64,000 nucleotides of DNA from an uncultured Bacilli bacterium (GTDB lineage Bacteria > Bacillota_I > Bacilli_A > RFN20 > CAG-288): contig CALVMW010000003.1 of assembly GCA_944349335.1 (NCBI GenBank), forward strand, positions 8,567-72,566. Reading direction: 5' to 3'. A program made the translations under genes and the position numbers. Positions 36,206-43,490 of the stretch are shown here, piece by piece. Each line of letters begins with the position of its first letter. The first letter of the stretch is position 1. Below the pieces are notes generated by a model. The model ran no database searches. It was not told where the DNA came from and saw only the letters and a program-made list of their open reading frames with translations.

Positions 36206-38362
36206 TTATATACTAGCTATGTAGAAAATATGATTCCTATCTAACTGGAAGCCAGAAGTTACTTGCTCACCAGTCACATGATCAAATAAAGCCTGATTTT
36301 GACTAGCTAATTGATTCAAATAAGAATCAACATCAAATTCTCCACCATCAACTGTTTCCATAATTCCAGCAAATTGTGTTTGTTGATTAAAAACAAGATG
36401 TTGAAGCAATGCATTATCTTGATAGTTGCCACTAAAATGATCTACAAAACCAGTACTAGTATATTGATCGATACCATTATTTTCATTACGATGCTCATAA
36501 TAGCGGAAATTATCATTTTGGAAGATTTTTACAAAGTATTCATTTTCAACTGGAGCAATAGCAATTTTGACTCGGCTAACATAGTTAGTTAACTCTTCAG
36601 AGCTGCTTCCATATGTCATATGTTCATAAACAACTTGAATACGGAAATTATAGAGACCTGTCTCTGTAATTTTAAGCATGTCTCTTAAAGCTTCAGCATT
36701 AGTTGTTAAATGATAATCATAACCATCAGAAATAGTTGAGGTATCTCCTTCAGTTTGATAGATAGCTCTTTGAAGTAAACCATCATCTGATATCGTCTGA
36801 TATTGATCAGTATTATTAAAGGCATTAATACTAGCTAATTCATCATCAGAGAATGAAGTTATTTCACTTTCCCACAGACCATCCCAGAAATCAATTGTAA
36901 ATACATTACTTCTAAATACACCAGTAACTTTGGTTCCTTCTGAACTTACATGAGTATCAGTAAATTCATGAGCAGTATCAATAAAGACATTATTTAAACC
37001 ATAAGTGACTGAATATTCATCACTACCTATTGGAGGATTAAAATTATTAAAATTATCTTCAAATATTTGACCATCAAAGAAATGTCTGGTTGATTTATCT
37101 TCATAATAGAAAGTTGAGAAAGGTCCACCTAAAACTTTAAACTCATAGACTCTTTCAATAAGAACATAACAGACAAAGGTAGAAAGACCTTCTTTAGCAG
37201 CTCCCCAATTCATATCAGGCATATCATCGCCAGTATATTTAATAGTAAGAGTATTAACAATAACACCATCAACAGAGTCAAAGCAGTTTTTTAATTCATT
37301 ATTACTAATGTAGTTAAAATAATCATTGCTACTTTGATGTTGTACGTCACTGCTTTCAAATACTTGATTAAAAACAAAGGCGTGAATATTATAAGTGCCA
37401 GGAGAATTAAACAAAGGTCCTGTCTTCTCATTACCATACCAGGATTCCTTCCAAGACCAAGAGGTGCTATATGCTGATGAATGCAAACGGTCTTGACGCC
37501 AACCCATAACAGATACTTCTAACCTATAATCATTTAGCTCATCATTCTCAAGAGTTAAATTTTTATAAGTATAATGAGCATCATTATAGCTACCATCTTG
37601 TGAAAAATATAACTCATTATTATTACCAAAAAGGCGAACAACGACTTGTTGTTGAGTTTGTTCTGTCTGACTATAATCTTTACCAGTCGTCCAAATGGGA
37701 TATAAGAAAACAACATGGTCATTAGCTTCTGATCCATCAGTAGTTTGACTATCAATAACTTGTAAGGAAGAGAAAGCATCTACATAATCAAAGTTACCTT
37801 GTCTATGAGATATACAATTAGAAGCAGCCGATTTATTAGCTGTCCACCCCGAGAACATTAACACCCAACCATTGTTATCAACTCTATTTGTAACAGGTGT
37901 ACCAAGACTATTAAATTGTTCAACCGAAATAGAACGATAAACAGTTAGTTTAGCCCAACCAATCGCAGCATCACTATTATATTCCTTATATGGAGGTTTT
38001 TCATCATTATTTATATATTCTCCACTTTTATAATATGTAATATTTTGCTTATCATAATAAGTTACATTTTCTTTAAAATCAATCCACCCAAAATTATTAC
38101 TTGGAGCTCTATTAATCATGCCTTCAACACTTAAATTTTGTTGAGCATAAGTTTCATCGACAAAGAAATAGACATCATAATAATCTTCATTATTTAACGA
38201 ATCAGATAAAGCATAATTTTCTTCAATATCATCAACTTTAATAGGAGCTTGATCAGTAGTTTGAGCAGAGTTTAAATAGAAAATAGAAAAGCCAGTAGAA
38301 ACAGTGACTACAATAGCTACTAAAAAAGTAAATAAGGTAACTATTAATCTTCTTTTTTTCAT
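36206..38362 (-). CDS. Large (718 aa) leader-bearing paralogue; candidate tip or adhesin component
   Basis: The N-terminus MKKRRLIVTLFTFLVAIVVTVSTGFSIFYLNS has the same leader type as the six genes upstream. It contains one FSGWT (Listeria-Bacteroides-repeat-like) motif and is rich in N/Y/D/F. Its start overlaps the preceding stop (ATGA). Confidence 0.55.
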   Translation of the reverse strand: MKKRRLIVTLFTFLVAIVVTVSTGFSIFYLNSAQTTDQAPIKVDDIEENYALSDSLNNEDYYDVYFFVDETYAQQNLSVEGMINRAPSNNFGWIDFKENVTYYDKQNITYYKSGEYINNDEKPPYKEYNSDAAIGWAKLTVYRSISVEQFNSLGTPVTNRVDNNGWVLMFSGWTANKSAASNCISHRQGNFDYVDAFSSLQVIDSQTTDGSEANDHVVFLYPIWTTGKDYSQTEQTQQQVVVRLFGNNNELYFSQDGSYNDAHYTYKNLTLENDELNDYRLEVSVMGWRQDRLHSSAYSTSWSWKESWYGNEKTGPLFNSPGTYNIHAFVFNQVFESSDVQHQSSNDYFNYISNNELKNCFDSVDGVIVNTLTIKYTGDDMPDMNWGAAKEGLSTFVCYVLIERVYEFKVLGGPFSTFYYEDKSTRHFFDGQIFEDNFNNFNPPIGSDEYSVTYGLNNVFIDTAHEFTDTHVSSEGTKVTGVFRSNVFTIDFWDGLWESEITSFSDDELASINAFNNTDQYQTISDDGLLQRAIYQTEGDTSTISDGYDYHLTTNAEALRDMLKITETGLYNFRIQVVYEHMTYGSSSEELTNYVSRVKIAIAPVENEYFVKIFQNDNFRYYEHRNENNGIDQYTSTGFVDHFSGNYQDNALLQHLVFNQQTQFAGIMETVDGGEFDVDSYLNQLASQNQALFDHVTGEQVTSGFQLDRNHIFYIASI

Positions 38363-38928
38363 AAGTAAGCTTCTCCCATAGTCGCATTAAACTCAAGAGT
38401 AATAGAGGAGTTACTTAAAGTCGTTTGCATATTTAAAAACTCTTGAATCATCGTTAAAGAAACATCATCAGCAAAAGAGAAAGTAGGTGTGGCAAAAGTA
38501 TGAGAATAAGTTTGAGTAGCAGTTGAAGCATCAAACTGAGCAAGAGTTTTAGTATAAACACCATTACCACTACTATCCCAAGTATCACAATTTATGTATC
38601 TTTGAGCATTATTATCTAATGTCATCGTCGCTGAAATAGTGATAGGGACAATAACATTCTCTTCCCAATTAGTACCTATAGTATAAACTGCATTTAATCT
38701 ATCAGCATTTAAAGCTATTCTTCTTTGATAGACACTTAAAAATAAGTCATCAGGAGTTATCTCTAAAGTTCCACCTTCAGCTCTAGTCTCTACAGTAACT
38801 TGAGGAGCATTATCACCAGTTAATGAAGCATTATTAAAAGTGATATAGCTAAAGAATGAATAACCAGTACCAACAATAGTAACAAAAGCAATAACGGGAA
38901 TAAGATATCTAAAAAATTTATGTCTCAT
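38359..38928 (-). CDS. Leader-bearing short paralogue 5 (189 aa)
   Basis: MRHKFFRYLIPVIAFVTIVGTGYSFFSYITF is the most divergent leader. The C-terminal half keeps PTFSFA...ITLEFN. Confidence 0.55.
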   Translation of the reverse strand: MRHKFFRYLIPVIAFVTIVGTGYSFFSYITFNNASLTGDNAPQVTVETRAEGGTLEITPDDLFLSVYQRRIALNADRLNAVYTIGTNWEENVIVPITISATMTLDNNAQRYINCDTWDSSGNGVYTKTLAQFDASTATQTYSHTFATPTFSFADDVSLTMIQEFLNMQTTLSNSSITLEFNATMGEAYL

Positions 38929-38931
38929 CGC

Positions 38932-39549
38932 TTATTCCTCCAAAGATACATCGACAGTAATATCTAAACCAGATAGATTATCTAAGGCTGTCTTCTCATC
39001 ATATGTATCAGGTTCCATTCCTGAAACATAAACAAAATTAAATGGAATAATAAGTACATAATCAGCGTCAGGTGTAATAGATATATTAGATAAGTTTGAA
39101 CTAATAGTATATGTAGTATTACTTCCAGTTATAGTCCATCCATCACTAACATTATTATCCCATGTTATATAATTAGCTAATTCACTAGGTATAGTTAAAT
39201 CTAAACTGATCGTAAATGTAAAATTATAAGAAACAGTATCTTCTGTATAGAGATTTAAAGAAAAGCCTTCAGAATATTTATATTCAGAAGCAATATTTCT
39301 ATTCATCCAATAGATTGGAGAATTATACCTAGAAACTTGAGAAGAAACAGTCGAATCGATATGAAGAACAGAATCAGAGCTTTCTCTTACTGATAAAGAA
39401 TGGACTTCGGTTCTTGCTAAATTTACTTCTAAAGAATAAGAATCTGTAGCAGTAGTAGAAGTAAAATAGAAAATACTAAAGCCTGTCCCTAATAAAGTTA
39501 AGGATGATAAGCCTAAGATTAAAAGATTCGACAACAATCTTCTTTTCAT
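38932..39549 (-). CDS. Leader-bearing short paralogue 4 (205 aa)
   Basis: Leader ...LTLLGTGFSIFYFTS. It shares LHIDST, PFNFVYVSGMEPDTYDE and ITVDVSL with its neighbours. Confidence 0.6.
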   Translation of the reverse strand: MKRRLLSNLLILGLSSLTLLGTGFSIFYFTSTTATDSYSLEVNLARTEVHSLSVRESSDSVLHIDSTVSSQVSRYNSPIYWMNRNIASEYKYSEGFSLNLYTEDTVSYNFTFTISLDLTIPSELANYITWDNNVSDGWTITGSNTTYTISSNLSNISITPDADYVLIIPFNFVYVSGMEPDTYDEKTALDNLSGLDITVDVSLEE

Positions 39550-39566
39550 TTTAATTATTCTCTTTA

Positions 39567-42687: not shown

Positions 42688-43413
42688 TTATTCTGAAACA
42701 TCAACAAAGGTTTCAAAGCGTAAAACATTGCTAGAGACCTTGGCTTTTAATGTTTCATAATCACTCCTGTCATAAACATCAAATGTAGGTGCATCATAAG
42801 TCAATGCAGGTAACTCATTAGTTGTTAAATCATCCGCTGAAAAAGCAAAATCAGTTAAAGTGACTTGTTCATTAAGATTGTTAGTGAACTCTAATGACTG
42901 AACCGCTCCTTCAATATCTGATTTTAAATCAGTCTGATCAGTAGCATTAGTATAAACTAAATAGCTAAGACGATAAGTGTTTTCACCATCAACATAATCA
43001 AATGCTGCAACAGTTGATGAAGTACTACTGATTAATACTTCATTAATTAAAGAAGAATCTTCTGCTCCTTCTGTTAAAGCCCAGAAGATGTCTGCACCAG
43101 CAGTAGTGTCCTCTTCTCCGTGTTGGAAGGTAACTGTTAAGTTATCATCCTCTTCAACTTCAGCAATATATCCGAAGACAACATATGTGTTCTCCGAATA
43201 TGAAATAGCACTTTGATCAAATGTGATAGTAGAATCGCTACTAACCAAAGAAAAAGTGTTACCGGCTTGACGAGCATCAGTGATTTTTACAGAGATATCT
43301 TCATTATTGAGTTGATTAGTTAACTCTGCAAAATACCATGTTGAGAAGCCTGCGCCGACAATAGCAGCGCATAATAAAACAGGAAGAAAGATACTATAGA
43401 CACGTTTTTTCAT
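42688..43413 (-). CDS. Leader-bearing paralogue 0 (241 aa), first gene of the operon (TapA-position)
   Basis: The N-terminus is MKKRVYSIFLPVLLCAAIVGAGFSTWYFAE. The body is acidic and T/S-rich. There is a 12-nt gap to the peptidase gene. Confidence 0.55.
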   Translation of the reverse strand: MKKRVYSIFLPVLLCAAIVGAGFSTWYFAELTNQLNNEDISVKITDARQAGNTFSLVSSDSTITFDQSAISYSENTYVVFGYIAEVEEDDNLTVTFQHGEEDTTAGADIFWALTEGAEDSSLINEVLISSTSSTVAAFDYVDGENTYRLSYLVYTNATDQTDLKSDIEGAVQSLEFTNNLNEQVTLTDFAFSADDLTTNELPALTYDAPTFDVYDRSDYETLKAKVSSNVLRFETFVDVSE

Positions 43414-43421
43414 AAATCATA

Positions 43422-43429
43422 CCCCCCCC
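43422..43429 (-). repeat. G8 homopolymer (C8 on the plus strand) at the Shine-Dalgarno position of the first operon gene
   Basis: The minus strand reads catGGGGGGGGtatgatttATG. This is the longest G/C run I noticed in the window. Confidence 0.9.
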
Positions 43430-43461
43430 ATGTTTAAATACTATTCCCATGGGTTATTACT

Positions 43462-43490
43462 ACTATAATAATCAAGTTATTAAAAATCAA
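43462..43490 (-). promoter_or_regulatory. Candidate sigma-A-type promoter of the fibre-like operon
   Basis: The minus strand reads TTGATT-17 nt-TATAGT, about 50 nt upstream of ATG 43413. Confidence 0.4.

Follow-up and report, generated by a model that had tools for sequence, protein, structure and literature searches.

To our knowledge, dedicated SipW-type signal peptidases with cognate leaders have so far been tied to the matrix fibres of TasA, camelysin and BsaA. The precedent for this logic is the tapA-sipW-tasA operon of Bacillus subtilis (PMC9245690, PMC9674648, PMC10151520), whose TasA fibres are formed from a major subunit and an accessory protein through donor-strand exchange (PMC9674648, PMC10151520). 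The sipW-bsaABCRSD operon of Clostridium perfringens encodes several putative secreted proteins (BsaA, B, C and D; PMC7395162); extracellular BsaA requires SipW, and BsaA forms stable polymers (PMC7395162, PMC11580942). The archaeal bundling pili of Pyrobaculum (AbpA/AbpB) have a small, beta-rich subunit whose signal peptide is cleaved off and assemble by donor-strand complementation, and the abp operon encodes a larger secreted protein, proposed as filament initiator or adhesin, and no dedicated peptidase (PMC9245690). Here we analyse an eight-gene chromosomal operon of an uncultured, low-GC gut bacterium of the class Bacilli, located in a stretch of 64,000 nucleotides (nt) that we call the window (assembly GCA_944349335.1, contig CALVMW010000003.1, positions 8,567 to 72,566), in which a gene for a SipW/Sec11-type peptidase lies among seven genes for proteins with a shared leader. 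Judged by its sequence, the operon appears to be a dedicated SipW-type export system in which the substrate families, the class of leader and the peptidase subfamily are all new.

As in B. subtilis, an S26B peptidase is encoded in the operon between secreted proteins that share a special leader, but there are seven putative substrates instead of two, and the hosts are uncultured gut Bacilli for which no cultured representative was found. With C. perfringens the locus has in common a sipW operon with several putative secreted proteins; it differs in that the peptidase comes second and not first, a two-component regulator is absent from the operon, the BsaA model TIGR04090 is unmatched, and a conserved terminal protein of 600-830 amino acids (aa) is present. 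The archaeal bundling pili are alike in that a small beta-rich subunit adjoins a larger secreted protein, and unlike in having no dedicated peptidase and in that AbpA is a TasA homologue with a jelly-roll fold, which the Foldseek matches listed here did not recover. A first-pass annotation, made by a model from the letters of the window, had known of no characterised example of this architecture. The literature holds no earlier description of this family that we could find, although an expanded sipW operon does have a precedent in sipW-bsaABCRSD (PMC7395162).

Results

All coordinates are positions in the window, and all operon genes lie on the minus strand. The first-pass annotation had listed eight co-directional genes followed by one terminator. 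All eight open reading frames (ORFs) were recovered exactly at those positions, spanning 36206-43413, as were the intergenic gaps of, in order, 12, 58, 17, 70, 17, 3 and -4 nt and the terminator hairpin. The features are listed below, with the expect values (E) of searches with hidden Markov models (HMMs).

43462..43490, minus strand: candidate sigma-70-type promoter (TTGATT, 17 nt, TATAGT; 9/12 in a consensus scan, a pattern match only)
42688..43413, minus strand: gene 1, 241 aa, first-position leader-bearing paralogue (class A), ahead of the peptidase gene (ORF; family HMM E 1.6e-30)
41560..42675, minus strand: gene 2, 371 aa, S26B (SipW/Sec11-type) signal peptidase (NCBIfam SipW E 2e-13)
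40887..41501, minus strand: gene 3, 204 aa, middle paralogue (class M), candidate major subunit (family HMM E 8e-62)
40249..40869, minus strand: gene 4, 206 aa, class M paralogue (ORF, family HMM, clustering)
39567..40178, minus strand: gene 5, 203 aa, class M paralogue (ORF, family HMM, clustering)
38932..39549, minus strand: gene 6, 205 aa, divergent paralogue of a form found only in this species group (family HMM, clustering)
38359..38928, minus strand: gene 7, 189 aa, penultimate paralogue (class Z), overlapping gene 8 by 4 nt (clustering)
36206..38362, minus strand: gene 8, 718 aa, large protein at the end of the operon, with a leader of the same class (at least 82 homologues)
36176..36203, minus strand: rho-independent terminator closing the operon (12-bp stem, then a T-run; free energy -16.7 kcal/mol, z -3.6)

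The start codon of gene 1 follows the candidate promoter after about 49 nt, and folding analysis of the 58-nt and 70-nt gaps revealed no significant structure and no internal terminator. The strongest Shine-Dalgarno sequence of the operon (AAGGAG) precedes gene 3; the peptidase gene has none that is obvious.

The shared leader has a consensus, over 183 family members, of M-K-K-K, 15 hydrophobic residues and [VI]-G-[STA]-G-[FY]-[SA]-x-[WF]-[YF]-F. Its n-region has 4 residues and is basic, its h-region has 15 and contains a conserved Pro (at -9 in 84% of members), and its c-region is the five residues G-x-G-[FY]-[SA]. Gly is found at positions 0 and +2 in 100% of the members, followed in conservation by [FY] and [WF] (both 99%), [SAG] (98%) and F (96%), and the first Gly is residue 20 or 21 in 92%. 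A near-invariant VG[ST]GFS[VI][WF]YF had been read in all seven products at first pass; the shared leader holds, but it is less uniform than that pattern, with variants in gene 1 (IVGAGFSTWYF), gene 7 (VGTGYSFFSY) and gene 8 (VSTGFSIFYL). In a six-frame translation of the whole 64 kb, the motif G[STAV]G[FY][SAG].[WF] is confined to the N-terminal ends of the six short paralogues.

Signal peptides of the n-h-c type follow the rule of von Heijne that the residues at -3 and -1 are small. The leader is, by its composition, a canonical n-h-c signal peptide; its predicted site has Gly/Ala at -3, an aromatic residue at -2 and Ser/Ala/Gly at -1, and in the large proteins, where the first Gly varies, [GA]-[FY]-[SGA] is kept, so that -3 and -1 stay small. 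Given the Gly helix-breakers that open the c-region and the small -3/-1 residues, cleavage is predicted after the invariant small Ser/Ala (Ser24 in gene 3). The TasA leader is similar in having Gly-x-Gly and then aromatics, and small-aromatic-small before the cut (PDB 8AUR starts at A28). However, TasA passes the leader model TIGR04088 (34 positions, cut-off 19 bits) with 38 bits, whereas the model gave no match at E <=10 to the seven isolated leaders, nor at E <=1 to 60 diverse family members. The leader is a putative new class of sorting signal.

None of the seven products has a lipobox, an LPXTG motif or a C-terminal hydrophobic segment, and neighbouring surface proteins of the same genome carry lipoboxes instead. 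Type IV pilins have a class III signal, in which a short basic leader and G|F-T-L-x-E come before the hydrophobic helix, and they are processed by an A24 prepilin peptidase. We rejected both a type IV and a sortase-assembled pilus because the leader and C-terminal features do not fit: the hydrophobic region precedes the conserved motif, and not the reverse, and the peptidase belongs to S26, not to A24 as for a type IV pilin or pseudopilin; for a sortase-assembled pilus, the C-terminal signals are missing from the products and there is no sortase in or beside the operon.

S26B peptidases are recognised by a catalytic Ser in an S-M-x-P/E box, a general-base His (xVHRV) that replaces the Lys of S26A, and an Asp in G-D-x-N. 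The first-pass annotation had assigned gene 2 to this group, and rightly so: the motifs MTGSME, DIIAF, IVHRVIAI and TQGDAN are all present, with the Ser, His and Asp boxes among them, and Ser131 (TGSME), His186 (IVHRV) and Asp205 (QGDAN) are invariant in four orthologues of 33-60% identity. The E values of gene 2 are significant for NCBIfam SipW (NF046067; E 2e-13, 50.4 bits) and the archaeal or endoplasmic-reticulum-type TIGR02228 (E 1e-9, 38.4 bits), but its scores lie under every curated cut-off (190 and 51.85 bits, respectively, and 22.9 bits for PF10502, where it scores 16.7), which makes it a distant relative and not a SipW equivalog. When the peptidase profile was compared with PDB sequences, the His and Asp boxes (VHRV..GDxN) aligned with human SEC11A/C, as weak matches. 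Because of this alignment and the three invariant residues, gene 2 is apparently an active, if distant, S26B enzyme.

SipW has about 190 aa, with the catalytic domain between one N-terminal and one C-terminal transmembrane segment. The operon peptidases, in contrast, have 323-503 aa and three hydrophobic segments, which in gene 2 a hydropathy scan places at 1-35, 81-114 and 240-265. The extra N-terminal segment and the charged, putatively cytoplasmic linker between the first two segments are conserved in orthologues; the C-terminal tail of gene 2 is acidic and about 100 aa long. The peptidase is predicted to form a new S26B subfamily.

HMMs of the three components (short paralogue, peptidase and large protein) were searched against all ORFs of 11 related loci and the window; one of these loci, L006, belongs to a sister strain, and L006 and L007 count as one of nine independent loci. 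In 9/9, a peptidase, a large protein and two or more short paralogues are adjacent and co-directional, and exactly one peptidase and one intact large protein occur in every locus with enough DNA. The peptidase is thus co-encoded and co-conserved with leader-bearing proteins, as in tapA-sipW-tasA, and the co-occurrence check suggested at first pass came out positive in every related locus examined, with the large protein included. The guanine-plus-cytosine (GC) content of the genomes that carry the loci ranges from 25 to 59%. Short paralogues number six in the window and in L006/L007, five in L001, four in L003 and in L009, and two each in L004, L005, L010 and L011. The genes usually stand in the order short, peptidase, short(s), large; in L011 the peptidase comes last. 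In the distant locus L009 (89-6714), three tandem first-class paralogues of 271-282 aa stand before the peptidase, so that expansion there was on the other side of the peptidase; upstream, a second large protein is represented by two fragments.

When the mature domains were clustered, three classes emerged: first (gene 1), middle (genes 3-5, variable in copy number) and penultimate (gene 7). Gene 1 groups with the genes in first position in L001, L003 and L006; gene 7 clusters with L001:10868, L003:3207 and L006:12577, and its class always stands directly before the large gene. Together with the tight or overlapping gene spacing, these positional classes suggest stoichiometric assembly with specialised minor components.

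Identity and the ratio of non-synonymous to synonymous substitution rates (dN/dS) were taken from a single strain pair, the window and L006, and the values are indicative only:

Flanking genes: identity 97.4-99.8%, dN/dS 0.02-0.13
Peptidase: identity 97.8%, dN/dS 0.18
Gene 1: identity 98.3%, dN/dS 0.18
Gene 3: identity 91.2%, dN/dS 1.1
Gene 5: identity 94.1%, dN/dS 0.55
Gene 8: identity 86.3%, dN/dS 0.55

Genes 3 and 8 diverge much faster between the strains than the peptidase or the flanks, and gene 3 has 25 allelic clusters at 83-93% identity in metagenomes. The fast divergence, the alleles and the strong Shine-Dalgarno sequence of gene 3 fit exposed, abundant surface components, without proving them.

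The short paralogues are 22-43% identical to gene 3 and match the family HMM at E 1e-30 to 1e-62, gene 3 scoring best, which puts their relationship far beyond chance. An exhaustive profile search of metagenomes returned 693 clusters (at 50% identity) at E <=1e-3, 293 of them at E <=1e-10; nearly all are 190-280 aa long and align end to end. The family was barely enlarged by a word-indexed search with a 60-sequence profile, and the sole name on its members is 'hypothetical protein [Bacilli bacterium]'. The first-pass annotation had seen no enzyme motif in the seven leader-bearing proteins; in agreement with this, none of them matches a Pfam or NCBIfam family or an enzyme domain, and neither do any of the 60 diverse short-family members match Pfam or NCBIfam. 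A metagenomic member of 611 aa (P0109) has the short-paralogue domain (1-200) fused to a C-terminal DUF6273 domain (E 1.5e-14), which implies that the module can carry extra extracellular domains.

For gene 3, AlphaFold predicts a beta-rich core with a single helix. The predicted local distance difference test (pLDDT) score of this model averages 67, with 63-94 over residues 50-204, 76-94 in the core and less than 50 over residues 1-48. Within this low-confidence N-terminus, after a polar linker of about 10 residues, lies an amphipathic strand with alternating hydrophobic and polar residues (h-p-h-p-h) at 39-43, followed by x-x-Y-A-x-I-G-x-L, a pattern conserved in the 60 diverse members. Legume lectins or arcelins are 6/9 of the weak matches of the family profile to PDB sequences (E 0.008-1.1); they cover residues ~60-160 of gene 3 with the pattern 'ItYd..v.vtv.L..el.eYV.vgfs' and may hint at a ConA-like jelly roll. 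We do not accept lectin homology and keep the link as a lead only, because Pfam and Foldseek give no confirmation: Lectin_legB is matched by 0/60 members, and the Foldseek matches listed recover no lectins.

Gene 8 shares with the short paralogues the leader region alone (hhalign, 47 columns). Its homologues, at least 82 and mostly of 610-830 aa, are all unnamed; 46 members of this large family have no Pfam match, and their profile found nothing among PDB sequences. An invariant (K/R)VDDIEENY motif lies about 18 residues past the leader. The AlphaFold model of gene 8 (pLDDT 78, predicted template modelling score 0.70) shows a large mixed alpha/beta body, and the motif falls in its low-confidence part.

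The first-pass annotation had taken the short paralogues for TasA-like subunits and had proposed searches with TIGR04088 and the TasA/camelysin (Peptidase_M73) models and of structures as checks. This view of the subunits found no support: the resemblance found is confined to the leader, and the mature domains have no detectable homology to TasA, camelysin, BsaA or AbpA. As a positive control we used a TasA query identical to PDB 8AUR over residues 28-261, which scored 514 bits with NF046066 and 38 bits with TIGR04088. None of the 60 family members reached E <=1 on the TasA, BsaA or M73 models. Alignment of the family with TasA by hhalign covered 29 leader residues only (LVGTGFSVWY-F against LVGGG--TWAAF; E 2.6e-4, probability 42%), and the TasA chains 5of1 and 8aur are absent among the 50 Foldseek matches listed for the gene 3 model. 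A relation to TasA is therefore not supported beyond the leader.

Genomic setting

The operon has housekeeping flanks: NrdI lies downstream and transfer-messenger RNA (tmRNA; 44431-44818, minus strand) upstream, and SmpB, RNase R, RecA, MutS/L and RNase P RNA are also among the flanking genes. Its GC content is 0.323, against 0.337 for the window, and no homologue of the large protein was found on 72,556 plasmids or 50,697 phages. We rejected a mobile-element origin because of the flanks, the similar GC and the lack of plasmid or phage homologues.

The non-coding DNA in front of gene 1, put at about 440 bp at first pass, is really about 330 bp long. Upstream of it, 43742-44185 (minus strand) is the remnant of a 148-aa Cys-rich ORF with a CxxC-rich N-terminus, 95% identical to an intact copy in the sister strain (L006:7314-7760); an N-terminal frameshift and an in-frame TAA mark it as a recent pseudogene. 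Beyond the tmRNA gene, 44897-46069 (minus strand) encodes a 390-aa multi-pass membrane protein with no Pfam match and 99.5% identity in the sister strain. On the sister-strain contig, GmrSD and HpaII-type restriction-modification genes (L006 1831-6972) lie between this 390-aa ORF and the operon and may be a strain-variable island.

On the downstream side, 26022-35682 holds six large ORFs, none with a Pfam domain. Five have lipoboxes (L-x-x-C followed by Ser/Thr-rich linkers); the sixth, 29688-30950, has a signal-like N-terminus and no clear lipobox. The ORFs at 26022 and 32507, and those at 28156 and 29688, are paralogue pairs, and the run is highly conserved between strains (99.6-99.8% identity, dN/dS 0.02-0.03). 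Next to it, 22350-25724 (minus strand) encodes a glycoside hydrolase of family GH97 with a collagen-triple-helix-repeat match near the N-terminus and a Big_2 domain; it adjoins GH2 and Big_4/CBM ORFs (14464-20801), which together form a glycan-degradation cluster.

Discussion

The reading that we prefer, and hold with about even confidence, is that the operon's own peptidase cleaves the leaders and that the beta-sandwich subunits thus freed build a surface polymer of several subunit types. For export, cleavage and its site, polymerisation and the subunit roles we infer the following course. Sec would export the seven leader-bearing proteins, and the peptidase would cut them after the invariant small residue (Ser24 in gene 3). 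Once released, the subunits would join on the outside of the membrane to give a hetero-oligomeric surface polymer, a fibre being the likeliest form. The variable-copy middle paralogues (genes 3-5) would make up most of it, and specialised roles, as initiator, adaptor or terminal component, would fall to gene 1, gene 7 and the 718-aa protein. The amphipathic strand about 15 residues past the cleavage site is a candidate strand-complementation element between subunits.

Chaperone-usher pili and the type V pili of Bacteroidia are built from paralogous ~20-kDa beta-sandwich subunits, with major, minor and large tip proteins encoded in one operon; their donor strand is an N-terminal extension in which hydrophobic residues alternate, and type V pili polymerise once a protease has cut the N-terminus. 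The present operon is alike in combining several paralogous candidate subunits with a large protein, in the alternating hydrophobic residues near the N-terminus and in the predicted N-terminal cut. It differs in having no chaperone, usher, lipobox or gingipain-type site, and its hosts, as members of the class Bacilli, are presumably monoderm; we neither show nor expect homology.

Several results weigh against assembly into a fibre. Neither in sequence nor in fold could the products be linked to a known fibre subunit: the TasA (NF046066), BsaA and TIGR04088/04089/04090 models miss all seven proteins while the TasA control passes, and the family profile retrieved no pilin or TasA-type chain from PDB sequences at E <=10. 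A Foldseek search of the gene 3 model, also proposed at first pass, gave no match at E <=1e-3 to 350,542 PDB chains (the best was integrin alpha-V, E 9.7e-3, TM 0.30; the best pilin in the list was CfaB, 4y2l, E 0.12), nor to viral structures at the same threshold, and the gene 8 model has no PDB fold match either (best E 0.03, TM 0.06). The low confidence of residues 1-48 in gene 3 may simply stem from the shallowness of the alignment (26 sequences), the dN/dS values come from one strain pair, and no anchoring device for a fibre is evident. Finally, AlphaFold draws the leader of gene 8 (residues 2-30) as one long helix, with which a membrane anchor is equally compatible. The fibre claim is plausible but unproven.

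That helix is one of several features which a membrane-anchored surface complex would account for. Some or all leaders would then be uncleaved signal anchors, the ectodomains would form a cell-bound adhesin or coat, and G-x-G-F-S-x-W-Y-F would be an interfacial motif joining the subunits and the three-pass peptidase-like protein in the membrane. The hydrophobic stretch and the motif together span about 23 residues, enough for a transmembrane helix; W-Y-F after the putative site is conserved beyond the needs of cleavage, no subunit has another anchor, and the extra conserved transmembrane and cytoplasmic parts of the peptidase could scaffold such a complex. The strict conservation of the catalytic Ser, His and Asp, however, argues for active proteolysis, small -3/-1 residues and Gly helix-breakers are typical of a cleaved signal peptide, and both of the sipW operons studied release their substrates after cleavage (PMC9245690, PMC7395162). 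We consider this explanation unlikely.

In a second alternative, to which we also assign a low probability, the products are secreted and do not polymerise: soluble beta-sandwich factors that bind glycans or the host, accompanied by one large effector. The paralogues would be functional variants, and the peptidase would merely be a specialised type I signal peptidase, or the only one of the cell. The recurrent lectin and arcelin matches, weak as they are, point in this direction, as do the DUF6273 fusion and the neighbourhood rich in glycoside hydrolases, and diversifying evolution is equally consistent with binding proteins. However, the first, penultimate and large genes are strict orthologues by position and the genes are tightly spaced or overlap, which suggests stoichiometric assembly, the lectin link fails in both Pfam and Foldseek, and a general signal peptidase would not need a near-invariant leader confined to its own operon.

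That the operon is an ordinary tapA-sipW-tasA homologue, with a true TasA/camelysin (Peptidase_M73) or BsaA member drifted past recognition, is very improbable, although the gene order is the same (secreted protein, peptidase, secreted proteins), the leader C-regions can be aligned and the AbpA-TasA homology itself needed the most sensitive methods (PMC9245690), since hhalign aligns nothing past the leader, 0/60 members reach E <=1 on the models, none of the Foldseek matches listed for a model with a confident core is significant or a TasA chain, and the peptidase architecture differs from SipW.

A more specific version of the polymer reading is doubtful. The operon could represent a new class of surface filament that is widespread in uncultured, reduced-genome gut Bacilli, with subunit families whose fold is unrelated to TasA, sortase or type IV pilins. 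Cutting by the S26B peptidase would lay bare a donor strand and an aromatic N-terminus and so allow assembly, and the 700-aa VDDIEENY protein, of a novel fold, would cap or initiate the filament.

The operon applies the same peptidase-leader logic as the known SipW systems to entirely unannotated protein families. With 693 short clusters and 82 or more large proteins, these families are sizeable; their sources are uncultured gut Bacilli, whose surface biology is hardly known. Even without polymerisation, the locus offers a putative new sorting signal, a predicted new S26B subfamily and a confidently modelled 700-aa protein that matches no PDB fold, all of them concrete targets for Pfam/NCBIfam curation and for structural work. 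If the products do polymerise, they would make up a fibre or pilus of a new class, borne by a prominent group of gut microbes that is still uncultured, and their strain-variable subunits would be relevant to adhesion and to phage or immune recognition.

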